Assembly: GCA_036267555.1 (NCBI GenBank)
Contig: DATAVV010000383.1
Location: 5,443 to 69,442, forward strand
Reading direction: 5' to 3'
Origin: Streptosporangiaceae bacterium
GTDB taxonomy: Bacteria; Actinomycetota; Actinomycetes; Streptosporangiales; Streptosporangiaceae
DNA length: 64,000 bases
The position numbers and the translations under genes are program-made. The notes under the pieces are model-generated. The model saw only the letters and a program-made list of their open reading frames with translations, did no database searches and was not told where the DNA came from. This document shows positions 1 through 22,236 of the stretch, piece by piece. How positions within the stretch are numbered: the stretch's first letter is position 1; each line of letters opens with the position of its first letter.

Positions 1-1
1 C

Positions 2-3000
2 GGGTTCGTCTCGGGAGATCAGCTGTTCGTGACGGGCCGGGTCAAAGACCTGATCATCGTGCGGGGACGCAACCACTACCCGCATGACATCGAAGCCACC
101 GCGGAGCGAAGCAGCCCGATGATGCGCCCCGGCTGCGGGGCGGCGTTCACCGTCGCGGACGATGACCAGGAGCGCCTGGTCATCGCGCACGAGGTCGCCC
201 GGGGGGTCGACCAGGTGAACGCCGGTGAAGTGGCCGGAGCGATCCGGGCTGCGGTGGCTGAGGAACACGGAGTCCGCGTCGATACCGTGGTCCTGCTGCC
301 GCCGGGCACGATCCCGAAGACCTCGAGCGGCAAGATCCAGCGCCACCAGTGCCTGGCCATGTTCGAAGCCGGAACCCTCACGCCGCTGGCCCGCGACGAC
401 GACGACGGCGGCGCCGGCGCCCGGGACGGGCGGCGCGCCCTGGACAAATCGCGGCTGCTCGCCGCGCCCGCCGCGCAGCGCCCCGGGCTCGTGCGGGACT
501 ACCTGTGCGATCTCGCCGCCGCGGAGTGCGGCATCGACGCGGACACCATCGCCACGGACGCGCCTCTGTTCGCCCTCGGCATCGACTCGCTCGCCATAAC
601 CGGCATCCAGCACTCGATCGAGACGGATTTGGGCGTGCGGGTGACTTTGTCGTACCTGGCCGACGCGGTCAGCCTCACTGGCCTGGCTGCCCGGCTGGGA
701 GAACAGGTCGAGGCGGACGGCATGTCGCCAGCGACCCAGATCCCGGTCTCCCCGGGGCAGCGCTCACTATGGTTCCTCCACGAGCTGGAACCCGGCAGCG
801 CCGCCCACACCATCGCGGTGGCCATGCGGTTGCGCGGCGAGCTGGACGTCGCCGCGCTGCAGAGCGCACTCGACGCGCTGGTCCGGCGGCACGCGTCACT
901 GCGCGCGACCTTCCCGGCCGTTGACGGCGCACCAGTCCAGCGGATCGCGGCCACGGCTCGGGCGCTGCTACGCCAGCACGACGCCCGGGATCTCGTCGAG
1001 GCGGCGCTCACCGAGCGGCTTGAGCAGGCCGCCCGCGAGCCGTTCGACCTGGCCCGCGGACCGCTGCTGCGCATCGACCTCTACCGCGCGGCACCGGGCG
1101 AGACGGTCGTCCTGGTGGCGGCCCACCACATCATCACGGACTTCTGGTCGATGACCGTACTCGTCCGCGAGCTCGAGGCGCTGTACGCCGAGCGGACCGG
1201 CGGTGCGCCCGCGCGGCTGCCGGAGCCGGCAGCGACCTACGCCGACTTCGTCGCCTGGCAGCAGCGAACGCTCGGAGAGGAGGCGGGCCAGCGCCTTGGC
1301 CATTACTGGCACGAGCAGTTGCAGGGCGCCGCGCCGCGGTTGCGGCTGCCGGGGCAGGTCACCGCGAGCGAGCCGCCCCCGGCCGCCGGGTCCGCGCCTG
1401 ACCCCGGCGGCCGGGACGCCGCGGCCATCTGTCGGCTGCGATTCGGGGAGTCGCTGCTGGGCCGCCTCAAGGAGCGGGCCCGCTCCGAAAGCGTCACCCT
1501 GCCCATGCTCATGCTCACGGCATTCCAGCTGCTGCTGCACCGCTACACGGGGCAGGACGATCTGAGCGTCGGCATGCCCGCGGCGGGGCGCGGGCGGCCC
1601 GAGTTCGAGGCCGTCGTCGGCTACTGCATGAACCCGGTCGTGATCCGCAGCACGCTGCGCGGCGGCGAGCCCGTGCGCGCGGCCCTGCGGCAGACGAGGA
1701 CGCGCGTCATCGGCGCCCTGGAACACCAGGAATACCCGCTGCCGCTCGTCGCCGCGGACCGCGGCGCACGTGAGCTGTTCCAGGCGATGTTCGTGTTCAA
1801 CCGGCCGCCGACCCCGGGCGAGGGCACGCTCGCGCTGCTGATGATGGGCCAGCCGGGACTGCGCCGCGGGTTCGGCGGCCTCCAAGCCGAGGCTGTGCCG
1901 CTGGACATAGGCGCCGCCGCGCACGATCTGGAACTTACCGTGGCCGAGGTCGACAACGCGCTGCTCGGCTCGTTCCGCTACCACCCCGAGGTGCTGGACC
2001 AGGCGACCGCCGCCCAGATGATGCGCCATCTCGAGGCCATCGCCGAAGCCATCGCGGAGAACGCCGCGCAGCCTGCGGATTCCGTTCCGATGCTGCGAGA
2101 CGACGAACGCCGGCGCATCGTCGCCGGGTGGCAGGCCACGGCGCGGGACTATGACGTCGGGGCCAACGTGGCCGGGCTTTTCGAGCGACAGGCGGACGCC
2201 GCCCCGGACGCGATCGCGGTCGAGGGGGAGTCCTCGCGGGTCACCTACGGGGAGCTGAACGAAAACGCCAACCGGATCGCCCACTTCCTGCGCCGCCGGG
2301 GCGTCAGGGCCGGCGCCCGCGTGGGCGTGTACGTCGACCGCTCACCCAGGATGGTCGCGGCCCTCATGGGCGTACTCAGGGCGGGCGCCGCCTACGTTCC
2401 TGTCGATCCGGCGCACCCGCGCGACCGGGTCGCGGCGATGTTCGCCGACGCGGGCGTGACGATCGTGCTGAGCCAGGCGGCGCTGGCCTCCCGGCTGCCG
2501 GGTGAGATCGAGGCGGTGCTGCTCGACGACGGCTGGGCGGCCCTCATGGCGCATCCGGAGGACAACCCGGGCCTGGCCACGCCCGCGGACGGCGCGGCCT
2601 ACGTGATCTACACCTCTGGCTCGACCGGCACCCCCAAGGGCGTGCAAGTGGGACACCGCTCCCTGACCAACTACACGCTGTCCGCCGTCGCGCAGTTCGG
2701 CCTCGCCCCGGGCGACCGGGTCCTCCAGTTCGCCTCGGTCGGCTTCGACGCCAGCGCCGAGGAGATCTACCCTGCCCTGGCCTCTGGCGCGACGGTGGTG
2801 CTGCGCAACGACTGGATGCTGAGTTCCGCGCAGACCTTCCTGGCCACGTGCGCCCAGTGGCGCATCAACGTGCTCGACCTGCCGACCGCGTACTGGCACG
2901 AACTGGTCACCGGCATCGCAGGCGGCCAGGCCGCGGTCCCGGCCAGCCTGCGCCTGGTCATCATCGGCGGCGAGCGTGCCTGGCCCCGGCAGTTGCGCGC

Positions 3001-5437
3001 GTGGCGAAAGCACGTCGGCGACTCCGTCCGCCTGGTCAACACCTACGGGCCCACGGAAGCGACGATCGTCGCGACCACGGGCGAACTGACCGGGATCCCG
3101 GCCGGCGGTGACGTGCCCATCGGCCGGCCCGTGGCCAACGTCACGGCCTACGTGCTCGACCCGGCGGGGGAGCCAGCCCCGCCGGGCGCCGCCGGGGAGC
3201 TCTACCTGGGCGGGGCCGGGATCGCGTACGGCTACCTGAATCGACCGGACCTGACCAGCACGCGCTTCGTGCCCGATCCGTTCCGGGGCGGCGGCTCCCG
3301 GATGTACCGTACCGGCGACCTCGCGTGCTATCTGCAGGACGGGAACCTCGTGTTCCTCGGGCGCGCCGACCGTCAGATCAAGCTGCGCGGCTACCGGGTT
3401 GAGCCCGGGGAGATCGAAGGCATCTTGCGCCAGCTTCCCGGGGTGGCTGACGCCCTGGTCACCCAGCACGGCGCGGCCGGTCAGCTCGTCGGGTACCTGG
3501 TCACCAACGGCGACGGCGCACCGGACCCGGCGCGGTTGCGCGGTGCGCTGCGGGAGAAGCTGCCCGGCTACATGGTGCCGTCCTCGTTCGTCGCGGTCGG
3601 GTCCTTCCCGCGCACGCCCAACGGCAAGGTCGACCTGGACGCCTTGCCGCCGCCGCGGCTCAGCGCGCCCGAGCCCACGGCGCCGCGGACCCCGGCCGAG
3701 GAATTCCTGGTCCGGACGTTCACCGACGTGCTCGGGCTGCCCGCCGTCGGGGTTCATGACGATTTCTTCGACCGCGGCGGTACTTCGCTGCTGGCCGCCC
3801 GGGTGGTCGCTCGCATCCGGGAGCACTTCTCGGTGGACGTTCCGCTCCGGTCGATCTTCGAGTGCGCGACCCCCGCCGCGCTGGCGGAACTGGTCGGCTC
3901 GGCGCCACCGGGCACGGCCGGGCCGCAGCTTCCCCCGATCCGCGGGGTGCCGCGGGACCAGCCGCTGCCGTTGTCATTCGTGCAAGAGCAGGTCTGGTTC
4001 CTGCAGCGGCTGGCCCCGGAATCCACCGCGTACAACGTGCCCCGGGCCCTGCGCGTCCGCGGCGAGTTCGACCAGGAGAAGGTCGCCCTGGCCTTCGCGG
4101 CGCTCGAAAGGCGCCACGAGATTCTCCGCACGACATTCCCTGACCACGGCGGCCAGCCCGTGCAAGTCATTCATCCGCCCCGCGGGATCCCGGTTCAGGC
4201 GGTTGACCTGGAATGCGTGCCCGAGGGCGAGCGGGACGACCGCATCAGGCAGTTCATCCTCGACCGCGGCCAGGAGCCCTTCGACCTGGCGACCGGCCCG
4301 CTCATCCGGCTGGCCCTGCTCCGGCTGGGACCGGCGGATCACGTACTGATCATGGTTGAGCACCATCTCGTTCATGACGGCTGGGCACAGGGTGTCCTGC
4401 TGCGGGACTTCCTCGAGCTGTACCAGGCCCAGGTCCTGCGGCGCCCGGCGAAGCTTCCCGAGCTGGCCGTTCAGTATGCCGACTACGCGGCTTGGCAACG
4501 TGAGAACCTGCGCGGCGAGCAACTCGACGCTCTGCTGGACTTCTGGACGGCGGAGCTGGAAGGAGCACCGCCGGTACTGACCCTGCCGACGGACCGGGCT
4601 CGCCCACAGACCCTGACCTTCGAGGGCCAGCAAGAGTCGCTGGTGATCGAGGGCGAATTCACCACCGCACTGCGCAGCTTCGGCCAGGAGCGCCGGGCGA
4701 CGCTCTTCATGACCATGCTCACCGGGTTCTCCGTTCTCCTGCACCGCTATGCCGCCCAGGCGGACATGGTGGTCGGAGTGGGCATCGCCAACCGCCAGCG
4801 GCCTGAGGCCGAGAACCTGCTGGGAATGATGATCAATACAGTGCTGGTGCGGGTCGACGCGTCAGGCACCCCGAGTTTCGAGGAGCTGCTCGGACGCGTC
4901 CGGGAGAGATGCCTGCAGGCCTACGCGCATCAGGACATGCCGTTCTCGAAGCTGGTCGAGCGGCTTGCCCCCCGGCGCAGCCTCAGCCGCATGCCGCTAT
5001 GCCAGGTGCTGTTCAGCTTCCTGGACACGCCCATGCCGGCCCTGCAGATACCGGGCCTGAGCTTCGAGGTCATCGAGGCGCACAACCGCAGCGCCAAATT
5101 CGATCTCAATGTGGTCGTGGTGCCGGGGGCGCTGCCGGGGGGCGGCCAGCCACAGCAGCGGCTGGACGGCGCGATCACCGTGCTCATGGAGTACAACGCC
5201 GACGTCTTCGAAGCCGAGACCGTGCGGCGAATGCTCGGCGACCTGCGGACCATCTTCACCACGGCGATCGCGCAGCCGCAGCGGCCCGTTGGCGACTTCC
5301 TCCCGGACCTCGTGCGGCCCTCGGCCGTGGCGCAGGACCAGGTGTCGGCCGTGGCCGAGCCGGCGCCGGACGGCGGCGGGGCGCCCAGGAAACTCGCAAG
5401 CTCCGGATCGAGCCGAGTGGGCAGCTGGTGGTCGTGA
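2..5437 (+). CDS. Non-ribosomal peptide synthetase (5' end outside window): FAAL C-terminal part-ACP-C-A-T-C
   Basis: The frame is open from nt 2. LFVTGRVKDLIIVRGRNHYP and KTSSGKIQRHQC are adenylate-forming A8/A10 cores of fatty-acyl-AMP-ligase type. The carrier Ser lies in LGIDSL. C-domain His motifs are HHIITDFWS and HHLVHDGWA. A-domain cores are YVIYTSGSTGTPKGV, NTYGPTE, YRTGDL, GRADRQIKLRGYRVEPGEIE and PNGKVD. The second carrier is FFDRGGTSLL. Stop TGA is at 5435-5437. Confidence 0.93.
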   Translation, partial: GFVSGDQLFVTGRVKDLIIVRGRNHYPHDIEATAERSSPMMRPGCGAAFTVADDDQERLVIAHEVARGVDQVNAGEVAGAIRAAVAEEHGVRVDTVVLLPPGTIPKTSSGKIQRHQCLAMFEAGTLTPLARDDDDGGAGARDGRRALDKSRLLAAPAAQRPGLVRDYLCDLAAAECGIDADTIATDAPLFALGIDSLAITGIQHSIETDLGVRVTLSYLADAVSLTGLAARLGEQVEADGMSPATQIPVSPGQRSLWFLHELEPGSAAHTIAVAMRLRGELDVAALQSALDALVRRHASLRATFPAVDGAPVQRIAATARALLRQHDARDLVEAALTERLEQAAREPFDLARGPLLRIDLYRAAPGETVVLVAAHHIITDFWSMTVLVRELEALYAERTGGAPARLPEPAATYADFVAWQQRTLGEEAGQRLGHYWHEQLQGAAPRLRLPGQVTASEPPPAAGSAPDPGGRDAAAICRLRFGESLLGRLKERARSESVTLPMLMLTAFQLLLHRYTGQDDLSVGMPAAGRGRPEFEAVVGYCMNPVVIRSTLRGGEPVRAALRQTRTRVIGALEHQEYPLPLVAADRGARELFQAMFVFNRPPTPGEGTLALLMMGQPGLRRGFGGLQAEAVPLDIGAAAHDLELTVAEVDNALLGSFRYHPEVLDQATAAQMMRHLEAIAEAIAENAAQPADSVPMLRDDERRRIVAGWQATARDYDVGANVAGLFERQADAAPDAIAVEGESSRVTYGELNENANRIAHFLRRRGVRAGARVGVYVDRSPRMVAALMGVLRAGAAYVPVDPAHPRDRVAAMFADAGVTIVLSQAALASRLPGEIEAVLLDDGWAALMAHPEDNPGLATPADGAAYVIYTSGSTGTPKGVQVGHRSLTNYTLSAVAQFGLAPGDRVLQFASVGFDASAEEIYPALASGATVVLRNDWMLSSAQTFLATCAQWRINVLDLPTAYWHELVTGIAGGQAAVPASLRLVIIGGERAWPRQLRAWRKHVGDSVRLVNTYGPTEATIVATTGELTGIPAGGDVPIGRPVANVTAYVLDPAGEPAPPGAAGELYLGGAGIAYGYLNRPDLTSTRFVPDPFRGGGSRMYRTGDLACYLQDGNLVFLGRADRQIKLRGYRVEPGEIEGILRQLPGVADALVTQHGAAGQLVGYLVTNGDGAPDPARLRGALREKLPGYMVPSSFVAVGSFPRTPNGKVDLDALPPPRLSAPEPTAPRTPAEEFLVRTFTDVLGLPAVGVHDDFFDRGGTSLLAARVVARIREHFSVDVPLRSIFECATPAALAELVGSAPPGTAGPQLPPIRGVPRDQPLPLSFVQEQVWFLQRLAPESTAYNVPRALRVRGEFDQEKVALAFAALERRHEILRTTFPDHGGQPVQVIHPPRGIPVQAVDLECVPEGERDDRIRQFILDRGQEPFDLATGPLIRLALLRLGPADHVLIMVEHHLVHDGWAQGVLLRDFLELYQAQVLRRPAKLPELAVQYADYAAWQRENLRGEQLDALLDFWTAELEGAPPVLTLPTDRARPQTLTFEGQQESLVIEGEFTTALRSFGQERRATLFMTMLTGFSVLLHRYAAQADMVVGVGIANRQRPEAENLLGMMINTVLVRVDASGTPSFEELLGRVRERCLQAYAHQDMPFSKLVERLAPRRSLSRMPLCQVLFSFLDTPMPALQIPGLSFEVIEAHNRSAKFDLNVVVVPGALPGGGQPQQRLDGAITVLMEYNADVFEAETVRRMLGDLRTIFTTAIAQPQRPVGDFLPDLVRPSAVAQDQVSAVAEPAPDGGGAPRKLASSGSSRVGSWWS
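476..703 (+). other. NRPS domain: acyl carrier (ACP/T1)
   Basis: The LFALGIDSLAITGIQ phosphopantetheine-Ser motif lies directly after the FAAL C-terminus. Boundaries are approximate. Confidence 0.75.
734..2068 (+). other. NRPS domain: condensation domain 1 (position of a lipo-initiation/starter C)
   Basis: SPGQRSLWFLHE C1 motif and HHIITDFWS C3 motif. The domain follows FAAL-ACP. Boundaries are approximate. Confidence 0.8.
2141..3643 (+). other. NRPS domain: adenylation domain (only A domain in the window)
   Basis: Cores A2 to A10 are recognisable: LRAGAAYVPVD, YTSGSTGTPKG, FDASAEE, NTYGPTE, GELYLGGAGIAYGYL, YRTGDL, GRADRQIKLRGYRVE, PNGKVD. Confidence 0.9.
3692..3898 (+). other. NRPS domain: peptidyl carrier (T2)
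   Basis: DDFFDRGGTSLLAARV motif. Confidence 0.85.
3941..5293 (+). other. NRPS domain: terminal condensation domain (no downstream A/T/TE in the same protein)
   Basis: LSFVQEQVWFLQRL C1 motif and MVEHHLVHDGWA C3 motif. A roughly 45-aa unstructured tail follows before the stop. Confidence 0.85.
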
Positions 5438-7752
5438 CCCGGGAAGACAGCCATCAGGTCGCACTGAGCGGCACCGCATGGGTCTTGTGGCGGGACGTCT
5501 GCGTGCGCAGCGCCGGTTTTCCGGTGCGGCGGGTACTCGCGCTGTGCGACGCCGACCTGGCGGATGCCGCGGACGAATACAGCCGCTCGGCTGACACGGC
5601 GTCGGCTGACACGGCCGCGGCCGTGACGTACCAGTCGGCCTACCAGGCGGCCGTCGCCCGGCTACCTGGCATTTTCGCGGACTTCGCGAGGGAGCCGCGA
5701 TTCCGGGAAGCGGTGATCTGGCAGAACCTGAACATGGCCGAGAACTGCCTCGACCGGCTGACGGCGCAGTCACGGCGCAACCGAAAGGGACGGCAGCGCG
5801 AAAACGCGGTCACCAGCTATGTCCAGCGGTATTGCCTGAAGAACGACTCCATCGGCTTCTTCGGGCCCGTGGGCTGGGCGTGCCTCACCGACGAAGACGA
5901 CGAGGCGGCCGTTATCCCGGGCGGTCAGCTGGTGGCCAGGAGAACGACCTACTTCGAGACGTGGGCCATCGACCAGATAGCCCGGGTGCTCGCCGAGCGT
6001 GACGATGTGTCCAGGTGGCTCCGGCCGCGCCGGGACCCGTCGACGCTGCTGGCGGGGAACCGCGTGCACAGCCTGCGGCGGCGCCCCGCGGCGCTGTCAC
6101 CCGAGCAGCTCCGCATGCTAATGCGCTGCGATGGCCGCCGGACGGTGAGCGAGCTGCTCGCCTCGCCCGAACCCGACCCCCGGACGGTGCTGGACGGCCT
6201 GCGGGATCTCGGCGCGGTGCGGATCGATCTCGCGGTCCCCGTCCAGACCTGGCCGGAACGGTGGCTGCGACGGCACCTCGAGGGCATCGGCGATCCCGCG
6301 GTCCGGGCTGAGGCGCTCCGCCCGCTGGACGATGTTGTCGCGGCCCGGGACGCGGTAGCGGCCGCCACGGGGGATCCCGACGCGCTGCGGGCCGCGATGT
6401 CGGCGCTCGCGCAGACCTTCGAGCGCGTCACGGGAAGGCCGCCGACCCGGCGGCCCGGTGAGACCTACGCGGCGCGCACGCTGGTCTATGAGGACACGGT
6501 CCGGGACCTGGAGGTGAGGCTGGGAAATACCATGATCAAGGCCCTGGCCGAGCCGCTGGGCCTGATGCTCGACAGCGCCCGCTGGCTGGTAACCGACATC
6601 ACTGAGCGGTACCGGGCGCTATTCCTGCGCTTGTTCGACGGCGAGTGCACGCGCACCGGGACCGGCCAGGTGCCGTTGTACCGCCTGCTGATGCTGGCCG
6701 CGAGCGAGATCTCCGCGCCATCGGCCCGCGGGCTCACCAAGGTCGTCTCCCAAGCTTTGCCGGAATTCCAGAAGCGCTGGCAGGCCGTGCTCCAGACCCC
6801 CCAGGACGGGCGTCCGCGGCACTCGGCCCGGTGCGCCGACATCGCCGAGAGGGTCGGCGCGCTGTTCCCGGCCCGGCCGGTGTCCTGGAGCTGCGCTTCG
6901 CAGTATTCGCCGGACATCATGATCGCCGCGACGTCGGCGGACGCGCTGGGCCAGGGCAACTTCCTGCTGGTACTCGGCGAGCTTCACCTGGCGGTCAACA
7001 CCCTGGAAAGCAGGTGCGCTGTCGAGCAGCACGCGGACCCGGCCCGGCTGCTGGACATGGTCGCCGCCGATCACGGCGCCAGGCGGATCGTCGCCGTTCC
7101 CGACCGGAATTCGCCCTTCGTCACGACGCGGGTGACGCCGCCGACGGCGCTGTTGTCGCCCGGCTTCACCTACCTGGCCAACGAGAACGGATCGTTCGAG
7201 CCACCCGAATCGGCTCAGGTGCTCCCGGCTGGAGGCATGTCCGTCAGACGCGACGGTGAAGACCTGGTCGTGCGGTCCGGTGCCTCGGGCCGGGCGTTCT
7301 CCTTCCTCGAACTCATCGGGGATCTCATGACCGCGGTGGTGGCCAACGCGTTCCGCCCCATGGCCCCGGCGCCGCATCAGCCTCGCGTCACGATCGACAA
7401 GCTCGTCTTCAGCCGGGAAGCCTGGACGTTCTCGGTCTCCGACTCACCATGGGTACTGGTCAAGGACGAGGCGCAGCGATATGCGCTGGCCCGGCAGTGG
7501 CGCACGGCAAACCGGCTCCCCGAGCGCATCTTCTACAAGGTCCCGTCCGAAGACAAGCCGGTAGCGGCCGACTTCCGGAGCCTGCCGCTCGTCAACCTGC
7601 TGGCCAGGAATGTGCGACACAGCCGGGACGCCGGGTTTGACACGTTCGGCGTCACCGAGATGCTGCCGGACATCGACCGGCTCTGGCTGCCCGACGCAGC
7701 GGACGAGCGGTACACCTGCGAGCTGAGATTCGTCGCGACGTCATGCGAATGA
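5434..7752 (+). CDS. Lantibiotic-dehydratase-N (LanB glutamylation domain)-like protein, small-LanB/PEARL-like size (772 aa)
   Basis: GTG 5434 overlaps the NRPS stop (GTGA). WVLWRDVCVRSAGFPV and YVQRYCLKNDSIGFFGPVGWA resemble, from memory, actinomycete proteins annotated as lantibiotic dehydratase (Lant_dehydr_N). No elimination (SpaB_C-like) domain is recognisable. The family call is by eye only. Confidence 0.55.
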   Translation: MTREDSHQVALSGTAWVLWRDVCVRSAGFPVRRVLALCDADLADAADEYSRSADTASADTAAAVTYQSAYQAAVARLPGIFADFAREPRFREAVIWQNLNMAENCLDRLTAQSRRNRKGRQRENAVTSYVQRYCLKNDSIGFFGPVGWACLTDEDDEAAVIPGGQLVARRTTYFETWAIDQIARVLAERDDVSRWLRPRRDPSTLLAGNRVHSLRRRPAALSPEQLRMLMRCDGRRTVSELLASPEPDPRTVLDGLRDLGAVRIDLAVPVQTWPERWLRRHLEGIGDPAVRAEALRPLDDVVAARDAVAAATGDPDALRAAMSALAQTFERVTGRPPTRRPGETYAARTLVYEDTVRDLEVRLGNTMIKALAEPLGLMLDSARWLVTDITERYRALFLRLFDGECTRTGTGQVPLYRLLMLAASEISAPSARGLTKVVSQALPEFQKRWQAVLQTPQDGRPRHSARCADIAERVGALFPARPVSWSCASQYSPDIMIAATSADALGQGNFLLVLGELHLAVNTLESRCAVEQHADPARLLDMVAADHGARRIVAVPDRNSPFVTTRVTPPTALLSPGFTYLANENGSFEPPESAQVLPAGGMSVRRDGEDLVVRSGASGRAFSFLELIGDLMTAVVANAFRPMAPAPHQPRVTIDKLVFSREAWTFSVSDSPWVLVKDEAQRYALARQWRTANRLPERIFYKVPSEDKPVAADFRSLPLVNLLARNVRHSRDAGFDTFGVTEMLPDIDRLWLPDAADERYTCELRFVATSCE

Positions 7753-7759
7753 GGTAGCC

Positions 7760-10351: not shown

Positions 10352-10803
10352 TGCGCACGCCGGCCGGACCCAGGACCGGACCCCCCGCGCCGCCTCTGCC
10401 CGGCGGCGTGAGCTCTGTCGCGCGGATCCCCGGGAAGGCCGCGGCATGGACGGCCGGGGCGCTGGCCGCGGCGATCGCCGTCGCCATCGGCGCGGCGGCG
10501 GGCGGCTGGTTCCTTCCCCTTCTCGTGGGCCTCGCCGCCGGCTGGACCGCCCCGCCTGGCCGGCTGCGCCGGGTCCTGGCCGCGAGCGTCCTCGTGACCG
10601 TGGCCGGGTGGGCGGCGCCGCTGCTGTGGCTGGCCGCGCGCGGGATCCCCGTCGCGGCCACCGCGCGGTCCATCGCGGCCACGGCCGGGCTGCCCGCATC
10701 CGCCGCCCTGATCGTGGCCGTCACCTTGCTGGTCGCCGCCATCCAGGCGGCGGCCGGCTTCTGGGTCGCGCGCACCGCGGCCTACTGGCGCAGGGCCGGC
10801 TGA
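10351..10803 (+). CDS. Small integral membrane protein (150 aa, about 4 TM), unknown function
   Basis: ATG 10351 overlaps the acylase stop (TGATG). The protein has A/L/G/W-rich hydrophobic helices. It is the last gene of the plus-strand operon. Confidence 0.6.
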   Translation: MRTPAGPRTGPPAPPLPGGVSSVARIPGKAAAWTAGALAAAIAVAIGAAAGGWFLPLLVGLAAGWTAPPGRLRRVLAASVLVTVAGWAAPLLWLAARGIPVAATARSIAATAGLPASAALIVAVTLLVAAIQAAAGFWVARTAAYWRRAG

Positions 10804-10837
10804 CCGGGGAGGACGCGGGGGGGCGGCGCGCGCCCCG

Positions 10838-15242: not shown

Positions 15243-15583
15243 CCCTGAGCGGCGCTGCTCGCGATGTCGTGTCCATGAGCGCTGTTAATGATCGCGTCTT
15301 CAACGCGGCAGCTTTCGGAAATAAGGACGGCATAGAGCGAGCGCAGAAATTCGGGACTAATCTGATGCGCGTGCGCGTAGTCGCGGGCCCGTTCCTGAAC
15401 CAGGTCAATCCGGGCGGGCTGCATCATGGGAACGCCGCTTTCCCGCTTATACGAGGCGATGCGCATGCAGCAGGACAGTCTCTCCCGCACGATGTCGAGT
15501 AGCCGCTGGTCTATCTCGTCGAGTTCCGCGCGTAGCGAAGAAAGGTCCGTTCCTGCTTGCCCGCCCATTGCCGATGTCACCAT
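15239..15583 (-). CDS. AroQ-type chorismate-mutase-like protein; PapB-like 4-amino-4-deoxychorismate mutase by context
   Basis: The protein is 114 aa. LRAELDEIDQRLLDIVRERLSCCMRIASYKRESGVPMMQPARIDLV fits the helical AroQ signature. It has an ATGA overlap with pabAB. Confidence 0.75.
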   Translation of the reverse strand: MVTSAMGGQAGTDLSSLRAELDEIDQRLLDIVRERLSCCMRIASYKRESGVPMMQPARIDLVQERARDYAHAHQISPEFLRSLYAVLISESCRVEDAIINSAHGHDIASSAAQG

Positions 15584-16515
15584 CTTTCCCTCCCTAGATC
15601 AAGGCCGAAGTCGCGCGCGGTGTCATCGCTGACTTCCGTAAAGAACGTGCCCAGAAAATCTTCTAGGTGGCTGAAAGATTCAGCGCAGAATAGAGTTGGC
15701 TTATAGGCTGAATCGTCATACCAGCGAGTAGCCATCTCCCGGACATCAAGCGGTATCGTCTCGGCCTCCTGTAGCTGGCTCATCTGCCCGTATGACGAGA
15801 GCAGCCCGGCGCCGATGGCCTGTACCCGGTCGCCTTTTTTTATGACGCCGTATTCGAGGCAGAACCAGAACACATTTGCCGCGACAAGCATCGCGTCCGG
15901 GTCGGTTAGCCGTACCGTCGCGTCGCCGATTACCTGATAGATACGGGCGATCCGCTCATTCGCCAGGACGTTGGCGTGGCCAATCATCTCATGGACCATG
16001 TCGGGTTCCGGGGAGAAATGGGGTGAAGAATGGTGGCGGAGATATTGCGTAGTCCGGAATACCCGGTGGTGCAGAGCGCCGTAAAAGTCGTCGAATGAGA
16101 CGCTGCCGACCGTGGGCCGCAGGGAGAATTCGGTGATCTTGCGCAGCGTCCGGGAGACATCCTCCAGTTCGGGTACGTGATCGTCAGGAAGGCCGAGCGC
16201 GTCGGCTCCGGCCAGGAATTCAGCGCAGGCATGCTCGCGGTGCAGTGAGCTCAGCCTCGAGGTGATGAGCTGCCACATGTCGTGTTCGCGATCGGTGTAC
16301 CCGACGCACGCGATGGGTTTTCCCGGCTCGTGCCCGAGCGCGAGCGCCGCGATGGTCTCCCTGCGCCGGACATAATCGGGATCGGAGCCACCTGGATGAC
16401 CGTCCGCGAAACAGACGGCCACCCGACCGCGATCTTGGATAACGAGCGGAGCGTCAAGCCTGGGCTGAGGGCTCGGCGCGGGGTGATCCGGTGCATTCCG
16501 TTCCATGGCTCGCAT
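15577..16515 (-). CDS. Pterin-dependent aromatic amino-acid hydroxylase (phenylalanine-hydroxylase family)
   Basis: The 2-His-1-carboxylate iron site is present as EPDMVHEMIGHANVL and FWFCLEYGV. HPGGSDPDYVRRRETIA is an N-terminal family motif. The start is ambiguous (16563, 16515 or 16506), and every option overlaps the 3' end of the upstream regulator. Confidence 0.85.
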   Translation of the reverse strand: MRAMERNAPDHPAPSPQPRLDAPLVIQDRGRVAVCFADGHPGGSDPDYVRRRETIAALALGHEPGKPIACVGYTDREHDMWQLITSRLSSLHREHACAEFLAGADALGLPDDHVPELEDVSRTLRKITEFSLRPTVGSVSFDDFYGALHHRVFRTTQYLRHHSSPHFSPEPDMVHEMIGHANVLANERIARIYQVIGDATVRLTDPDAMLVAANVFWFCLEYGVIKKGDRVQAIGAGLLSSYGQMSQLQEAETIPLDVREMATRWYDDSAYKPTLFCAESFSHLEDFLGTFFTEVSDDTARDFGLDLGRERW

Positions 16516-18709
16516 GCTGCCGAGATGCGCTGTTCGTGCGCTTAAGGCGAGCTGACACGCCATTGCCGTACCGGCCCGCGGGCTCGAGTCCCGCCGCGTA
16601 CTCGCGGATCAGGTCGTGAAACGCGAACCGGCCGGGCACGTGCTCGGTCAGAAGGTGAACGTGGCTGAGCTCACGCAGCAGGTCATGGGCGACGGGGAGG
16701 GGAACGCCGGCCAGGCGGGCCGCCACGGGCACGGTGACGTCGCGGCCCGGGTACCTGCCGAGCAGTCGGAACAGCCGTGCGCCCGGTTCGGTCAGCGCCT
16801 CGTAAGACCAGGAGAAGACCGTTCTCAGGTCGGTCGCGGGGTCCCCGCCGGCCAGGATGTCGAGCCGGCCGGCGCCGCGCCGCAGCTTGTCGGTGAGGAA
16901 GGCCAGCGGGAACGTGCGCTGCGCCGAGGCCAGGGTGGCGGCGATGCTGAGGGCCAGGGGAAGCCGGCCGCACGTCTCGACCAGCCGGGCCGCCGCGTCG
17001 GGCTCGTCGCTCAGGCGCCCCCGGCCCAGGCGGGACGCGAGCAGCTGGCGAGCGGCCTGCCGGCTGAGTACATCCAGTATGAGCAGCTGGGCGCGGTGCA
17101 CGGCGGCGAGCCCGGCGAGCTGGCTGCGGCTGGTGACGATGACCAGGCTGCCAGGGCCGCCCGGCAGCAGCGGCCGAACCTCCTCGACGTCACGGGCATT
17201 GTCCGCGAGCACCAGCATTCGCCGGTCGGCCAGTAACGTCCGGTACAAGGCGGCTCGTTCCTTCTGATGCGCCGGGATGTGCTCGGCGGGCATCCCCAGC
17301 GCCTCGAGGAAGCCGTGTAGCGCCTCCGTTGCACGGACCCGCGCGCCCCGGGGGCCGAAGCCGCCGAGATCGACGTACAGTTGTCCGTCCGGGAAGCAAG
17401 AAGCGGCCTGATGGGCCCATTGGATGGCCAGGGTGGTCTTGCCGACCCCGGCGGCGCCCACGATCGCCGTGATCACCGCCGACCCCCGCGCGGCGGCCGA
17501 GCCCTCCGCCATCCGGCTGAGGTGCGCGGACATCTGCTTCAGCTCATCCGCCCGGCCGACGGTCGGCCACAGCGCGGCCGGGAGCTGGCGCGGCATCGGC
17601 ATCCTGGCCACCGCGGCTGCCGGGTCGGGCAGGCGGTCCGGGGGTTCGCCGCCGAGGACGGCGCCGGTGGTGAGGCGGGCATCCTGACGCAGTATCAGCG
17701 CATGCGCCTGCGCCAGTTCGGCGCCGGGCAGCACACCGAACTCATGGTCCAGCCGCCTTCGGATCTCCTCGTAGATCTGCAGGGCGGCCGCTGCCTCGCC
17801 GCTGCCCGCCAGCGCGGTCATCAGCCTCGCGTGCGCGGGTTCGTGGAACGGGTGCACCGCCGTGGCCGCCCACAACTCGTCCAGCGCGCGCTCGGGATGG
17901 CCGTGCTGCCGGCAGGTATCGGCGTAAGCGAGGACGGTCCCGACGCGCTCCCGGGCCAGGCCGTACGTGGCCTTATGGCCGCGCAGCACATCAAGGTCGG
18001 CCAGCGGCTCGGCCTTCCAGGCCCGCAGCGCGCGCGTGAACAGGTCACTGGCGATCGCCGCGTCGCCCGCCCGCAGCGCGGCCCGGGCCTGCCGGACCAG
18101 GTCCCGGAAGCCGAGCAGGTCCAACTGGTCCGCGGTGACCTGGAGTCGGTAGCTGGTCCTCGCGGATACCAGTAGCCCGTCCTGGTCTTGCGGGGACCGG
18201 GCCGGGTCGAGGGCCGCGCGTAGCCGGCTCACATAGACCTGCACCAGGTTGACGGCGGTCGCCGGCGGCTGCTCCCACAGCGCGTCGATGATGGTCTCTC
18301 TGTGCACTACGGCGTTGGACTCGATGGCGAGGATGGCGAGGACCGCACGCTGCCGGGGCGGCCCGAGCAGGACCGGCCTGCCGTCACGCCATGCGGCCAG
18401 CGGGCCGAGCAGGCGCAGCCGCACTCCGGTGCCCGGCGCGGACTCGGCGTCGGCGCTGGCCACCGGCACGTGGGATTCCTCGGCGGCCAGGGCGAGGGCT
18501 CGCCGCTGTGATGAGTCCAGGAGGAGAGCGTGGCTGAGCTGGGCCAGTGAGCTAGGGCGTGGCCGTGACCTGCGACCTTGCTCCAGGTCTCTGATCGCTG
18601 CGACGCTGAGCCCGCTTCGCTGCGCCAGCGCTGACTGGGAGAGCTCAGCGGATTGCCGCAGTGAACGCAGCATGACGCTGAACTGCCTGGTAGATCTGTT
18701 GTTGCCCAT
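16454..18709 (-). CDS. XRE-HTH / SARP (wHTH+BTAD) / NB-ARC fusion transcriptional regulator
   Basis: The XRE helix-turn-helix is LSQSALAQRSGLSVAAIRDLEQGRR. The SARP wHTH shows LRLLGPLAAWRDGRPV and RQRAVLAILA. A BTAD-like helical region is present. The P-loop is GAAGVGKTTLA. Confidence 0.85.
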   Translation of the reverse strand: MGNNRSTRQFSVMLRSLRQSAELSQSALAQRSGLSVAAIRDLEQGRRSRPRPSSLAQLSHALLLDSSQRRALALAAEESHVPVASADAESAPGTGVRLRLLGPLAAWRDGRPVLLGPPRQRAVLAILAIESNAVVHRETIIDALWEQPPATAVNLVQVYVSRLRAALDPARSPQDQDGLLVSARTSYRLQVTADQLDLLGFRDLVRQARAALRAGDAAIASDLFTRALRAWKAEPLADLDVLRGHKATYGLARERVGTVLAYADTCRQHGHPERALDELWAATAVHPFHEPAHARLMTALAGSGEAAAALQIYEEIRRRLDHEFGVLPGAELAQAHALILRQDARLTTGAVLGGEPPDRLPDPAAAVARMPMPRQLPAALWPTVGRADELKQMSAHLSRMAEGSAAARGSAVITAIVGAAGVGKTTLAIQWAHQAASCFPDGQLYVDLGGFGPRGARVRATEALHGFLEALGMPAEHIPAHQKERAALYRTLLADRRMLVLADNARDVEEVRPLLPGGPGSLVIVTSRSQLAGLAAVHRAQLLILDVLSRQAARQLLASRLGRGRLSDEPDAAARLVETCGRLPLALSIAATLASAQRTFPLAFLTDKLRRGAGRLDILAGGDPATDLRTVFSWSYEALTEPGARLFRLLGRYPGRDVTVPVAARLAGVPLPVAHDLLRELSHVHLLTEHVPGRFAFHDLIREYAAGLEPAGRYGNGVSARLKRTNSASRQHASHGTECTGSPRAEPSAQA

Positions 18710-18981
18710 GAGGTCCGATCGCGGCTCTCTCCATCGGCGCCGGGACTATCGCGTCACAAGATCATGCTTGCACCGGGCGCTGCGGACCGGCTGTGCGCCC
18801 GCTACGGCCGATGGTCCGTGCGGTACCTGGTGAGGTCAGAGGTCACGAGGAGTCGGCTGAGCCCGCGCTGTGGTCGATGAGCAGGCGCTATGCCGCGTTA
18901 AGTCAAATCACAGTCAGACCACAGTGCGGGCCGCGATCCTGGTCCGGATACATAGCCGTCGGCTCATACAAGGGTGATTGC

Positions 18982-19137
18982 ATGAAATCCAAGGTTGTAC
19001 GGATCTTCGCGGCGCTCTCTGCCGCCGCGATACTGAGCTGGACCGGTGTGGCGGCCAGCAACGCCTCAGTGGCTGGCGTGCAGAACCCGGGAGTCTCGCC
19101 GCATTGCAGCGTGTGCTGGACCGCGCCTAACAGCTGA
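18982..19137 (+). CDS. Small predicted secreted peptide (51 aa) with C-terminal CxxC-W motif
   Basis: An AGGGTGA RBS lies 5 nt before ATG. MKSKVVRIFAALSAAAILSWTGVAASNA looks like a Sec signal peptide. The tail is SVAGVQNPGVSPHCSVCWTAPNS. The flank is locally lower in GC. A perfect 14-bp hairpin follows 13 nt after the stop. Confidence 0.5.
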   Translation: MKSKVVRIFAALSAAAILSWTGVAASNASVAGVQNPGVSPHCSVCWTAPNS

Positions 19138-19149
19138 GCGCGGGCATGT

Positions 19150-19182
19150 GCCCGTGGCCAGCCGCCCAGGCTGGCCACGGGC
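19150..19182. terminator. Bidirectional hairpin terminator between convergent genes
   Basis: GCCCGTGGCCAGCC-gccca-GGCTGGCCACGGGC forms a perfect 14-bp stem with a 5-nt loop. It lies between the stop at 19137 (+) and the stop at 19192 (-). Confidence 0.7.
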
Positions 19183-19191
19183 ATTGCGCTG

Positions 19192-22100
19192 TCAGAGGTG
19201 GTCGCCGAGCTTGTAGCCGCACTCTTCGAGGGCGCCGATGACGCGTTGCTCGTGCCCGGAGAGGCCAAGCTCGCGCAGGATCGGCAGGGCTGCCTTGAGG
19301 TGATCGGCGGCCTGACCGTAACGGCCGAGTGCCTGCTGGGCCAGCGCGATCTTGAACAGGCAGAGGGCGTTGCCTCGCTGCATCCCCCGGTCGCGGAAGA
19401 TCCGCTGCGCCCGGGATAGGGCTTCGATCGCATCGTCGTAGCGGCCCACCGCATGATAGGCATCGCCGAGCGGCCCGAGCGCATAGGCCTCGCCGACCGC
19501 GTAGCCGAGATCGCGGGCCATTTCTTCGCCCCGGCGGCACAGGCTGATGGCCGCCATATGCCGGGAGGCGCTCAGGTTCGCGAAGCCCAGGGTATGGAGG
19601 CACTCGAACTCCGCGTACGGCTCGTGCAGCTCACGCGCGATGGCCAGGGCGCACTCACAAGCCTGGATACCAGCTTCGTGATCACCGAGCCGGGTCGTGG
19701 TCACGCCGAGAATGCGCAGGCTCGACAGTTCGCTGTGGCGATCCCGGACGAGCCGAGCGACCTCAACGCCCTGCACGGCGTCTTTGCGTGCTTCCTGGAG
19801 AAGGTCTTGTTCCTCCGCGCAGTAAGCCCGCCAGTGCAGGGCGAGAGCCAGCGCGCGCTGATCCTCCAGTTGCTCAAAGACGTGGACGCACCGCTGCAGT
19901 ACCGCGAGTGCCTCGGCGTTCTTGCCGCGTTCGGCGGTGAACTGGACGAGTTGCAGTTCCGCGTGCGCGGTCGCCAGGAGATCATCCGCCGAGTCCGCGG
20001 CGGCGATGACCGACCTCCACAGCTGCTCAGCATCGTCAAGACGGGCCTGGAAGAACTGGAAGGCCGCCTGGCGTGCGGCGAGTTGCGCCGCCAGTTCGTG
20101 CCTGCTCGTCGTGCAGGCACGCCTGGTCGCCTCCATGAGGTTAAGCCGTTCCACGTTGAACCAGGTGATCGGATCGGCCGTCAGCCGGCTGACCAGCGCG
20201 CCGGCCACGACACTCTCGTCACGGGAAGCAGCCCGGCGGGGAATCGCCGGGACCCGGGGCAGCCGGAGGTCCGCTGCGGCGGCGACCTCAAGCCAGCCCC
20301 TCAGCACGCGCACGAGGGCGGCGTCGCGTTCTGGCTCCGGTTCGTCGGCCAGCCGCTCGGACGCGTAATCGCGCAGTAGATCGTGCAGCCGGTACCGGGG
20401 CTCGCCGGTGGCGTCGGTCCCCACCGGCATCAGCAGGGACTTGTCCACGAGCTGGTTCACGACGTCGGCAGCATCCCGCTCGCCGAGCAGGGCGGCGATC
20501 ACCCATTCGGCGACGTCGGCCGGCCACAGCAGGCCAATCCGCCGGAATGCCCGGCGCGCCCGCTCCTCCAGCATCTCGTAGCTAGGCATGACGCTGGCCC
20601 GGAACGCCAGGTCGTCCAGGGTTAGCTCGTCCAGCCGCCGCCGCTGGTCGGCGACCGCGTCGGCGATCCGCATGACGGGCCACGCCGGCCGCGTGGCGAG
20701 CTTGGCTCCGGCGATCCGGACGGCCAGGGGCAGCCGCCCGCACGCGGCCACCAGCATGTCACTGGCCGCGGTCTCGGCTGCCACCCGCTCGTGGCCAACG
20801 ATGCGACTCAGCATCGCCACCGCGTCGGAATGCGGCAGCGCATCGAGATGCCGCAGGTGCGCTCCGGCCATCCCGCCCAGCCGGGACCGGCTGGTCACGA
20901 TGACGGCACAGCCCGCGGTGCCGGGCAGCAGCGGCCGTACCTGATCCACGGAGCGGGCATCGTCCGCCATCACCAGGATCTTCTGGCCCGCCATCTGTGA
21001 CCGCAGCAGCGCGGCCCGTTCCGTAGCCGAGTCCGGGATGGCGGATCCGTGGAGTCCGAGAGCCCGCAGCAGCTCGCCCAGGACCTCGGCCGGGTCGCGA
21101 GGAAGCTGGGTGGACCCGGCCAGCTCGACATGCATCTGCCCGTCTGGGAACACGTGCCGGAGCAGGTGCGCCACCTGCAGGGCCAGTGCCGTCTTGCCCA
21201 CCCCAGGCGGCCCGCTGATGACCGCCATGGGCACCCCGACGGAGTCCGGGGTGGGCGTCAGCAGGCTCGTCAGGCTGCCGACCTCCACCGCACGGCCGGT
21301 GAAGTCGGGCAGGGCGGGCGGTAGCTGGCAGACGGGTGCACGCCCGTTGCCGGGCAGCCGGACGCCCTTGACCCGGGCTGGTCCCGAAGCGGATAGGGCG
21401 CTGTCGGCCGCACCGTCTGCCGCCTGCGGGAGATCCTGGCGCAGCACGCGGTCATGGGCCTCAGCCAGTTCGGCACCCGGGTAGACACCGAGCTGGTCAT
21501 CCAGGCGGCGGCGCAGTAGATCGAATGCCTGCAGGGCCGCGGCCTGCTGCCCGATTCCCGCCAAGGCGATCATCAGGTGAGCGTGCGCCTTCTCGTTCAG
21601 CGGCTCGCGCGCGGCGAGCGACTGCAAGTGTGACACCACGCTGTCATGCCGGTGGGCACTGAATGAGGCCTCGGCGTAATCGATGATCAGAGCCGTCTGC
21701 TGACTGGTGAGCCCGGTTACGGCCGGGTGATCGCGTAGCAGGTCCAGCTCGGCCAGGGGGCTCCCGCGCCACAACCCAAGTGCCTTCTCGTACAGCCCGC
21801 AGGCGGCGTCCAGGTCGCCGCGGGCATTCGCTTCGCGGGCGTGCTCGGCCAGTTCGTGGTAGGCCAGCAGGTCGAGCTGTTCCGGGGTCGCGCGCAACAA
21901 GTAGCTGGGGCCGAGCGATTCAAGCGGGGACGCGGAATCTCGCGCGGGCCGGGCCGGATCGAGGATTCTGCGCAACTTGCTGACATGGGCTTGCACCTGG
22001 TTCACCGCCGTGGCAGGCGGGGTATCGCCCCACAGCGCATCAATGATCGCTTCGCGATGCAAGGCGGCGTTCGGGTGCAGGGCGAGAAGACCGAACACCG

Positions 22101-22236
22101 CGCGCCGCATGCCCGCGCCTAGGGCGAACTCAACCCCGCAGCGGGACACGGCCAGAGAACCAAGCACGCTCACCCGCACGCTGTCAGCGGCCGCCCGGGC
22201 ACCGCCTATCCGTGCTGTTGGTTCGATGAACGTCAC
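19192..22236 (-). CDS. AfsR-like SARP / NB-ARC / TPR transcriptional regulator
   Basis: The SARP wHTH shows VSVLGSLAVSRCGVEF and RRAVFGLLAL. A BTAD region is present. The P-loop is GPPGVGKTALA. The C-terminal ~400 aa consists of TPR-like repeats. The start is taken as GTG 22236 (alternative GTG 22179). The ORF-track extension to 22662 runs through low-GC, intergenic-looking DNA. Confidence 0.85.
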   Translation of the reverse strand: MTFIEPTARIGGARAAADSVRVSVLGSLAVSRCGVEFALGAGMRRAVFGLLALHPNAALHREAIIDALWGDTPPATAVNQVQAHVSKLRRILDPARPARDSASPLESLGPSYLLRATPEQLDLLAYHELAEHAREANARGDLDAACGLYEKALGLWRGSPLAELDLLRDHPAVTGLTSQQTALIIDYAEASFSAHRHDSVVSHLQSLAAREPLNEKAHAHLMIALAGIGQQAAALQAFDLLRRRLDDQLGVYPGAELAEAHDRVLRQDLPQAADGAADSALSASGPARVKGVRLPGNGRAPVCQLPPALPDFTGRAVEVGSLTSLLTPTPDSVGVPMAVISGPPGVGKTALALQVAHLLRHVFPDGQMHVELAGSTQLPRDPAEVLGELLRALGLHGSAIPDSATERAALLRSQMAGQKILVMADDARSVDQVRPLLPGTAGCAVIVTSRSRLGGMAGAHLRHLDALPHSDAVAMLSRIVGHERVAAETAASDMLVAACGRLPLAVRIAGAKLATRPAWPVMRIADAVADQRRRLDELTLDDLAFRASVMPSYEMLEERARRAFRRIGLLWPADVAEWVIAALLGERDAADVVNQLVDKSLLMPVGTDATGEPRYRLHDLLRDYASERLADEPEPERDAALVRVLRGWLEVAAAADLRLPRVPAIPRRAASRDESVVAGALVSRLTADPITWFNVERLNLMEATRRACTTSRHELAAQLAARQAAFQFFQARLDDAEQLWRSVIAAADSADDLLATAHAELQLVQFTAERGKNAEALAVLQRCVHVFEQLEDQRALALALHWRAYCAEEQDLLQEARKDAVQGVEVARLVRDRHSELSSLRILGVTTTRLGDHEAGIQACECALAIARELHEPYAEFECLHTLGFANLSASRHMAAISLCRRGEEMARDLGYAVGEAYALGPLGDAYHAVGRYDDAIEALSRAQRIFRDRGMQRGNALCLFKIALAQQALGRYGQAADHLKAALPILRELGLSGHEQRVIGALEECGYKLGDHL

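Follow-up and report, generated by a model that had tools for sequence, protein, structure and literature searches.

What kind of product is made by a locus in which a nonribosomal peptide synthetase (NRPS), a protein resembling the lantibiotic dehydratase LanB and a penicillin amidase-family acylase are encoded in one operon, and in which that operon converges on a second one for p-aminophenylalanine (PAPA)? Such a locus occupies the left part of the DNA that we analysed, a stretch of 64,000 nucleotides (nt) from contig DATAVV010000383.1 of a soil Streptosporangiaceae bacterium, which we call the window. We lean, with a little better than even confidence, towards reading it as the right-hand two thirds of one NRPS cluster that makes the pro-form of a lipidated ureido-peptide with a PAPA-derived residue. 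The locus is a real, uncharacterised antibiotic-type cluster with a "Curea plus PEARL" logic, in which a predicted ureido-forming condensation (C) domain (Curea) ends the NRPS and the LanB-like gene behind it encodes a predicted tRNA-dependent peptide ligase (PEARL).

The precedent for this logic is the sna cluster of Stackebrandtia nassauensis, which is responsible for threopeptin and has been expressed heterologously. The C domain of SnaA forms a urea between two Arg residues, a "chain reversal" that leaves a free carboxylate (Yu & van der Donk 2024, PMC11212132), and SnaE, annotated as a lantibiotic dehydratase, is a PEARL-like protein that adds Thr to the freed carboxylate (PMC11212132). 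According to the same authors about two thousand clusters of the NRPS or polyketide synthase (PKS) type encode "lantibiotic dehydratases" (PMC11212132), and sna is the only characterised example that we found in the literature.

The window is approximately 70% G+C actinomycete DNA, and its genes were called from an open reading frame (ORF) listing, codon-position GC content and Pfam/NCBIfam scans. At 100% identity the NRPS fragment matches HEX3925176.1, a protein of 2234 amino acids (aa) from a 70,975-bp contig of a Streptosporangiaceae metagenome-assembled genome (MAG). The plus-strand operon consists of four genes:

2 to 5437, plus strand: NRPS, C-terminal 1811 aa of a 2234-aa protein (Pfam), with FAAL-T-C-A-T-C architecture, the last C domain predicted to be of the urea type
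5428 (or 5434) to 7752, plus strand: predicted SnaE-like PEARL, 774 aa (PF04738 as sole match; motif comparison)
7760 to 10351, plus strand: Ntn-hydrolase acylase of the penicillin amidase family, 863 aa (PF01804)
10351 to 10803, plus strand: small presumed membrane protein, 150 aa (conserved ORF, no Pfam family)

The retained NRPS sequence opens within the FAAL, whose C-terminal subdomain (PF23024) lies at nt 47-379, and about 423 aa of the protein fall to the left of the window. It continues through a first C domain (C1, active site HHIITDF at nt 1124-1144), an A domain (nt 2180-3628) and a second T domain (nt 3704-3895) to the terminal C domain (nt 3965-5296). The latter carries the octet EHHLVHDG at 4358..4381 of the plus strand (context MVEHHLVHDGW, aa 1451-1461 of the fragment), which is identical to E744-G751 of SnaA and conforms to the Curea signature EHHxxHDG. 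Among MIBiG C domains this signature is reported to be necessary and sufficient for ureido formation, and SnaA requires both E744 and H749 (PMC11212132). On the strength of this motif the terminal C domain is predicted to be a Curea domain.

The specificity code of the A domain, taken by hand alignment to GrsA numbering, is DAEDIGTIVK and is Arg/Lys-like, agreeing at eight of ten positions with the published Arg consensus D-[AV]-E-D-[IVL]-G-A-[VI]-[TD]-K (PMC12283262) and resembling a Lys code as well. The predicted substrate of this domain (A1) is a basic residue, as in SnaA. The whole arrangement recurs in the family, for which we retrieved 27 NRPS homologues of 2150-2400 aa at 50-100% identity. 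In all 27 the domains follow one another as FAAL-T-C-A-T-C, the first C domain contains HHxxxDF and the terminal one EHH[LM][IV]HDG, and the A-domain code is either DAEDIGTIVK or the variant DAQDIGNIVK. They include cultured strains of Kitasatospora, Phytohabitans suffuscus, Plantactinospora, Nonomuraea, Solwaraspora and Streptomyces, and the same arrangement is found in cis, as FAAL-T-C-A-T-Curea-A-T, in MAG proteins of which one is labelled Thermoanaerobaculia.

The second carrying element is the LanB-like protein. A sequence-only reading of the window had called its gene LanB-like; the motifs and domain content of the protein contradict an enzyme of the dehydratase type. Its only family match is PF04738, the N-terminal (glutamylation) part of lantibiotic dehydratases, and the elimination domain PF14028 is absent from it, from all genes of the cluster and from L103, a sister contig described below. 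It carries the PEARL/SnaE motifs QRYCLKNDSIGFF together with a C-terminal ELR. The tRNA-binding motif SYVQRYCLKNDSIGFF at aa 130-145 has the PEARL form Y-x-Q-R-x3-K-N-[DE]-T, with Y131, Q133, R134, K138, N139 and D140 invariant in 23 homologues. At the other end of the protein, which closes with ...YTCELRFVATSCE, the sequence YTCELRFVA occupies aa 762-770 and includes the Glu-x-Arg of PEARLs as E765-L-R767, likewise invariant in the 23. In the two short regions of SnaE that were compared (Fig. S12 of PMC11212132) the counterparts are SYAQRYFTKNDTIGFF and YTSELRFVAV, whereas dehydratases have R-x3-R-x-TPFGLF. In TglB, E801 and R803 are required for the ATP-dependent phosphorylation of the substrate carboxylate, and this Arg is missing from dehydratases; the third phosphorylation residue of PEARLs is E542 in TglB and D558 in BhaB7. 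From these motifs the LanB-like protein is most likely a SnaE-like PEARL, its activity being a prediction.

The modelled fold of the protein points weakly to the LanB family. A sequence search against the PDB gave no match, and an AlphaFold2 model built from the 23-sequence alignment was poor (mean predicted local distance difference test score, pLDDT, of 54). In a Foldseek search with this low-confidence model the top nine hits were LanB glutamylation domains, the sole significant PDB matches, with the split enzyme TbtB as the best; the result is weakly consistent with LanB glutamylation homology. The protein could instead be the glutamylase half of a split LanB, which would use Glu-tRNA to activate a Ser or Thr hydroxyl on the NRPS and so give a dehydroalanine lipopeptide, with elimination occurring spontaneously or through an unrecognised partner. 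The PF04738 homology, the match to the glutamylation-only TbtB and the Ser predicted as substrate of the second NRPS in L103 all suit such an enzyme, but its sequence has Q-R-x3-K-N-D where a dehydratase has R-x3-R-x-T-P and keeps the E-x-R Arg that dehydratases miss. With PF14028 found neither in the window nor in L103, and with the gene placed directly behind the Curea domain as for SnaE, we regard a glutamylase as very unlikely and continue with a PEARL.

The surroundings of the gene also differ from those of a LanB. No LanC-type gene is present in the window, and the features that define the LanB class (elimination domain, LanA with leader, LanC) were not found. A 51-aa Cys-containing ORF at 18982..19137 of the plus strand, MKSKVVRIFAALSAAAILSWTGVAASNASVAGVQNPGVSPHCSVCWTAPNS, was tried as a LanA or carrier peptide and rejected, having a Sec-type signal peptide and no lanthipeptide leader. 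It lies between two SARP regulator genes and has a short CxxC tail, after which comes a long GC-rich inverted repeat (hairpin at approximately 19141-19190); a secreted signalling peptide is one possibility.

What lies to the left of the window can be judged from L103, an independent metagenome contig (JGI 3300062832, 23,829 bp) that matches window positions 1..13044 as one collinear block at 94.65% nt identity. The collinearity crosses the point where the two operons converge and stops only at the end of the L103 contig, and since a different sample keeps the same layout the convergent arrangement is not a chance juxtaposition. Upstream of the NRPS gene L103 encodes, in order, the end of a stand-alone A enzyme, a TauD-family oxygenase, MbtH, a 1412-aa A-T-C-T NRPS and two ABC transporters, and by analogy these genes very probably flank the window on the left as well. 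The A-domain code of the A-T-C-T NRPS is DVWHISLIDK, which we take to be Ser-like; an FkbM-like insert in the same domain gives a weak Pfam match only. The stand-alone A domains of the relatives are without the canonical YGPTE motif.

The acylase that follows the PEARL gene matches PF01804 with E=1.5e-176 over positions 1-667 of the 675 in the model. It has an N-terminal hydrophobic signal or anchor helix at aa 18-36 and, after a spacer, the sequence DSNAW at aa 324-328 with S326 as the candidate nucleophile, so that a full-length family match, a nucleophile motif and an export signal, the hallmarks of an exported Ntn-hydrolase acylase, occur together. Because of the hydrophobic anchor and the SNAW nucleophile motif the enzyme should act outside the cytoplasm. 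The 150-aa protein encoded next is rich in Ala, Leu and Gly with several hydrophobic segments, and is 49-93% identical to the equivalent gene product in four related loci. The cassette of PEARL, acylase and small membrane protein is found again in five related loci, with the acylase gene directly after the PEARL gene in L018/19, L020, L021 and L103 (PEARL identity 63-95%); in L003 the acylase gene is further downstream, behind an AlkZ-like gene. In L020 a homologue of glutamyl-tRNA reductase (HemA-like) is encoded at 18782..20293 within the PEARL/acylase cluster, a second tRNA-linked enzyme there.

Pairing of a fatty acid-loading NRPS with an exported acylase is familiar from PvdL/PvdQ in pyoverdine and Tem25 in telomycin biosynthesis, where an N-terminal adenylating domain loads a fatty acid and a hydrolase of the penicillin amidase family is exported and encoded in the cluster, implying transient acylation. 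The acylase of the window differs in its translational linkage to a PEARL gene and a conserved membrane protein, and the usual acylation site, the N-terminal alpha-amine, is impossible here if a urea is formed. As a PvdQ orthologue it was rejected, scoring 59.2 bits against an NCBIfam equivalog cut-off of 950. The parallel nevertheless raises the prospect of a pyoverdine-like chromophore or siderophore, whose acylated precursor would be exported and deacylated by the acylase and whose hydroxylated aromatic residue would be oxidised. Such a product would accord with the FAAL-initiated NRPS and its Ntn acylase, including the weak match to the PvdQ model, with the ABC exporters, MbtH and TauD of L103 and with the predicted o-aminophenol or catechol-type residue. 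The low PvdQ score (59 against 950) speaks against it, as do the lack of siderophore uptake, reductase or N-hydroxylase genes, the flanking control by SARPs rather than iron-type regulators, and the AlkZ-like and pentapeptide-repeat genes of some relatives, resistance-type genes that point to toxins. We judge a siderophore extremely unlikely.

Where, then, would the aromatic residue come from? The second operon and the regulators beyond it are encoded on the minus strand:

10838 to 12148, minus strand: class II DAHP synthase (PF01474, E=9e-139; TIGR01358)
12145 to 13104, minus strand: PapC-like 4-amino-4-deoxyprephenate dehydrogenase of the TyrA family (PDH_N/PDH_C)
13101 to 15242, minus strand: fused PabAB/PapA aminodeoxychorismate (ADC) synthase (GATase and Chorismate_bind; TIGR00553)
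15239 to 15583, minus strand: PapB-like CM-family enzyme, candidate 4-amino-4-deoxychorismate mutase, 114 aa (PF01817, CM_2; TIGR01803)
15577 to 16563, minus strand: pterin-dependent aromatic amino acid hydroxylase, start codon uncertain (PF00351, Biopterin_H)
16454 to 18709, minus strand: SARP1, large SARP regulator (XRE HTH, Trans_reg_C, BTAD and NB-ARC)
19192 to 22662, minus strand: second SARP, large AfsR-type (Trans_reg_C, BTAD, NB-ARC and TPR)

All eleven genes named in the sequence-only reading were found at their positions by the Pfam/NCBIfam scans, and its description of a hybrid biosynthetic locus with two convergent operons stands, as does its expectation that the NRPS N-terminus and further genes lie to the left. 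The junctions are also as it described them. The PEARL gene has two in-frame GTG starts (5428, 5434) with a GTGA overlap with the NRPS gene, the acylase gene begins 8 nt past the PEARL gene and is coupled to the membrane-protein gene by a TGATG overlap, and from DAHP synthase to hydroxylase the minus-strand genes overlap by 4, 4, 4 and 7 nt. The 34-nt gap between the operons (10804..10837) is nearly all G+C and holds the inverted repeat GGGGGGGCGGCGCGCGCCCCGC, which may be a common bidirectional terminator for both. A simple terminator scan made no call at 10804..10837, a promoter/terminator scan of the window gave a result no better than that for shuffled sequence, and no tRNA genes or Rfam families were found in the window.

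The assignment of the minus-strand operon to PAPA synthesis, which the sequence-only reading had also made, is borne out by the family scores. PabAB reaches 356.8 bits for TIGR00553 (cut-off 328.4), the mutase 78.4 bits for the "CM-like" TIGR01803 (cut-off 73.35), and JGI gives the name 4-amino-4-deoxyprephenate dehydrogenase to several proteins that share 47-55% identity with the dehydrogenase. An ADC synthase, a CM-like mutase and a TyrA-like dehydrogenase are thus encoded in one operon with overlapping stop and start codons, and this gene content supports a p-aminophenylalanine operon of the PapA/B/C type that has its own DAHP synthase. The same set is known from PapA/PapB/PapC of pristinamycin I, the chloramphenicol cml genes and DinV/E/F of dnacin B1, which share with the window the fused ADC synthase, the CM-like mutase (TIGR01803), the TyrA-like dehydrogenase, a pathway-specific class II DAHP synthase and the lack of a dedicated aminotransferase; dinVEF have been reconstituted in E. 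coli. The dnacin pathway differs in using an HpaB-type flavin monooxygenase instead of a pterin-dependent hydroxylase, the chloramphenicol hydroxylase CmlA is a diiron enzyme, and the assembly lines that these operons serve are of another kind than that of the window.

The best PDB match of the hydroxylase is rat tyrosine hydroxylase (1TOH, 9e-56), compared with about 1e-23 for bacterial phenylalanine hydroxylase (PAH). In common with eukaryote-type tyrosine 3-hydroxylase (TyrH), to which its catalytic domain is closest, it keeps the 2-His-1-Glu iron ligands and an Asp at the position of TyrH D425. The residue next to the iron-binding Glu is Tyr in place of the Phe of TyrH and PAH or the Cys of phenylalanine 3-hydroxylase (Phe3H), and Gly stands at the position of Phe3H T202. 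Assignment as a Streptomyces Phe 3-hydroxylase (PacX/SfaA) was rejected, the diagnostic C187/T202 being absent and replaced by Tyr and Gly. We infer that the enzyme 3-hydroxylates a para-substituted Phe, most simply PAPA. As called from the ATG at 16563 its ORF shares 110 nt (16454..16563) with the 3' end of SARP1, and the Pfam match begins at aa 55; in view of this overlap the true start is probably further downstream, the alternative being that the SARP1 tail is not real.

Both regulators have Trans_reg_C (an OmpR-type winged helix) followed by BTAD, the domain order of SARPs, and both contain NB-ARC, in line with the two SARPs that the sequence-only reading had placed upstream of the minus-strand operon. 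The second is 40% identical to SARP1, and both are large. SARP1 lies directly upstream of the PAPA operon on the same strand and, there being no intergenic space, may be co-transcribed with it. To the right of 22.7 kb the genes are unrelated (SDR, hydrolase, WD40-Roc-TIR protein, kinase, oxidoreductases and others). One of them, at 24645..27695 on the plus strand, encodes a 1016-aa protein with a WD40 propeller, a Roc/Ras-like GTPase and a C-terminal TIR domain; it is STAND/defence-like and unrelated to the cluster. Across 22-64 kb of the window there are no further NRPS genes, so the pap operon has no other customer nearby.

Do the two operons serve one pathway? We consider this likely. The competing explanation is that two unrelated pathways abut, one making a ureido-lipopeptide without PAPA and the other a SARP-controlled pap operon that supplies a free PAPA-derived metabolite or a distant synthetase. 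The comparison with L002, the closest divergent NRPS/PEARL relative (85% identical), bears on both sides of this question. Collinearity between L002 and the window, and with it the homology, breaks off about 125 nt beyond the PEARL stop; the breakpoint, from 12414 onward in L002 (window equivalent ~7877), is a sharp module swap. Beyond it L002 has genes for an SfmD-like peroxidase (a tyrosine-ring hydroxylase) and a thioesterase in place of the acylase and pap genes. The core of NRPS and PEARL occurs without pap genes in L002, L018-L021 and L003, and a basic-looking rather than aromatic A1 code also favours separate pathways. On the other hand L002 likewise encodes an aromatic-ring hydroxylase in this place, which fits a hydroxylated para-substituted Phe building block and suggests that interchangeable modules supply the hydroxylated aromatic residue. 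A second sample, 94.7% identical, shows the convergent junction too, the remaining 40 kb of the window hold no other assembly enzyme, the pap operons of pristinamycin, chloramphenicol and dnacin always feed an adjacent NRPS, and the stand-alone A and the T domain without its own A in L103 need a substrate. Two separate pathways therefore seem to us unlikely, and we keep to a single one.

The SfmD-like genes bring in one further possibility, a tetrahydroisoquinoline pathway of the saframycin/dnacin kind, in which a cryptic acyl group guides assembly and the hydroxylated PAPA becomes an aminoquinone ring. The dnacin B1 cluster resembles the window in having PapABC homologues, an AL-T loader for a cryptic acyl group, a ring hydroxylase, an extracellular peptidase and a SARP, and SfmD-like peroxidase genes adjoin the homologous NRPS in L002 and L104. 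Neither the window nor L103, however, encodes a Pictet-Spengler C-A-T-R NRPS, transketolase/ACP glycolaldehyde genes or an FAD oxidase, and the Curea signature and the PEARL would have no role in tetrahydroisoquinoline assembly. We give this pathway hardly any credence. In L104 itself (Phytohabitans suffuscus, 5180..16729) the genes ahead of the NRPS encode a gamma-glutamyl transpeptidase (GGT, like the acylase an Ntn hydrolase), an SfmD-like peroxidase, a glyoxalase and a pentapeptide-repeat protein, and no PEARL gene occurs up to the contig end.

If the two operons are joined in one pathway, the following route would account for the genes. DAHP synthase, PabAB, mutase and dehydrogenase, with functions assigned by homology, would provide p-aminophenylpyruvate and from it PAPA, and the hydroxylase probably then acts at C-3 of the para-substituted ring to give 3-hydroxy-PAPA, an o-aminophenol. 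The FAAL-T-C-A-T-Curea protein would take up a fatty acid and a basic amino acid. By its motif and the SnaA precedent, the Curea domain would build a CO2-derived urea between the alpha-amine of the basic residue and the amine of the carrier-bound residue that follows, a chain reversal that would leave the carboxylate of the former free. If the window resembles L103, the urea acceptor would be a Ser, possibly O-methylated, on the A-T-C-T NRPS, whose last T domain would be loaded in trans by the stand-alone A enzyme, plausibly with the PAPA-type amino acid. The PEARL, judged by its motifs and by SnaE, would phosphorylate the carboxylate with ATP and add one proteinogenic residue from an aminoacyl-tRNA. 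The ABC pair would export the pro-form, the signal-anchored acylase, working outside the cytoplasm as PvdQ or Tem25 does, would strip off the fatty acyl group, and the two SARPs would switch the cluster on. The N-acylated small peptide proposed in the sequence-only reading gives way here to a product of predicted urea chain reversal and tRNA-dependent extension, which is probably larger, since L103 adds the A(Ser)-T-C-T NRPS, the stand-alone A, TauD and MbtH.

The weakest joint of this scheme lies between acylation and urea formation. Every characterised Curea uses a donor with a free alpha-amine and sits after a loading A-T (PMC11212132). In all 27 homologues the donor A-T is preceded by FAAL-T-C with HHIITDF, so the Curea domain does not belong to the first extension module, and a lipoinitiation module ahead of the donor conflicts with the published mechanism, which needs that free alpha-amine. 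If a urea is formed the acyl chain has to be carried by a side-chain nitrogen or by a different amine, for example the 4-NH2 of PAPA; other possible solutions are that C1 is not a conventional N-acylating domain or that the clade has another activity. A bolder version, which we hold with low confidence and consider quite unlikely as stated, takes the invariant fusion of FAAL-T-C to the Curea donor module as a sign of undescribed chemistry: C1 (HHxxxDF) would acylate a side-chain nitrogen as a removable lipid handle, or else the urea would be built on the 4-amino group of PAPA, a branching diamine. Either way the lipidated ureido-peptide would be a small non-ribosomal carrier for the PEARL, and the extracytoplasmic acylase and the membrane protein, co-transcribed with it, would unmask an oxidation-prone o-aminophenol warhead only after export. 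Chitinimide was considered as a lipo-ureido precedent and set aside, the accessible part of its description presenting a detoxin-like ureido compound and no acylated ureido donor.

Several other observations weigh against a single lipidated ureido-peptide pathway. The NRPS of the window and most of its family read HDGWAQG, with Ala where characterised Curea domains have Ser (SnaA S753). This Ser after DGW is reported to be fully conserved in characterised Curea domains and is found in amide-forming domains too (PMC11212132), and for the latter reason the difference carries limited weight; given the Ala, the FAAL-Curea clade may do different chemistry. A literature search gave no exact published match to the code DAEDIGTIVK or near variants, and no TE or R release domain is visible. 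The FAAL-Curea NRPS occurs without a nearby PEARL gene in L104, L105 and L023, most of the PEARL relatives whose identity does not exceed 54% lack a Curea domain in their neighbourhood, and distant ones adjoin ordinary C domains. The pap operon was found beside the NRPS/PEARL core only in the window and its 94.7%-identical sister, being absent from L002, and the linkage of the two operons could be recent or incidental. The mutase and hydroxylase genes (15239..16563) have a GC content of 0.60-0.61 and a third-position GC content (GC3) of 0.69-0.70, against a GC3 of 0.81-0.93 for all neighbours; this atypically low GC3, which also favours two separate pathways, suggests a more recent or foreign origin of both genes. 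The genes of the left flank are known from L103 only and lie outside the window, and the product and all of its chemistry are deduced from genes.

The wider set of relatives shows how variable the partners of this core are. A scan of GTDB representative genomes gave relatives at 54% identity or less only, none with pap genes or acylase. Two adjacent PEARL-like paralogues, which share 53% and about 40% identity with the protein of the window, are encoded beside an NRPS in L005 (10001..14601) and L017 (7315..13348), both from Actinomycetota MAGs of which one is labelled Streptosporangiaceae. In L105 (Kitasatospora sp. NPDC089509, 10001..25439) a FAAL-...-Curea(-T) NRPS lies beside an Asn synthase, an AlkZ-like gene and a 3HCDH-ACP-acyl-CoA dehydrogenase (ACAD)-acyltransferase (AT) set that we take to be aminomalonyl-ACP-like. 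AlkZ-type enzymes are DNA glycosylases, and the AlkZ-like gene near the front-end module in L105, and also in L003 and L021, hints at a genotoxin.

How far does the sna precedent reach? Both systems have the same C-domain octet, a stand-alone LanB homologue without elimination domain and with the same tRNA-binding and E-x-R motifs, an Arg-like donor, MbtH with an ABC transporter pair (here in L103) and no ribosomal carrier peptide. They differ in that the Curea domain of the window ends a protein beginning with FAAL-T-C, has its acceptor T on a separate protein and shows Ala for Ser after DGW; the window has no PKS or acyl-CoA dehydrogenase and adds an Ntn acylase, a small membrane protein, the pap operon, a pterin hydroxylase and SARPs. 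The sequence-only reading could place the combination in no described cluster, and this is right insofar as we found none with the same gene set, while sna (PMC11212132) does offer a partial precedent. For the lipoinitiation module, the acylase/membrane-protein cassette and the PAPA/hydroxylase operon we found no precedent in a described cluster.

What the locus represents, in our view, is a second recurrent architecture, FAAL-T-C-A-T-Curea with PEARL, Ntn acylase and membrane protein, that is shared by several lineages of actinomycetes and also turns up in soil metagenomes. The locus bears on how generally PEARLs accompany urea chain reversal, on whether Curea-type domains function after an acylating module and on transient lipidation as a pro-drug or handle in such pathways, and its predicted 3-hydroxy-4-aminophenylalanine would be an unusual building block.

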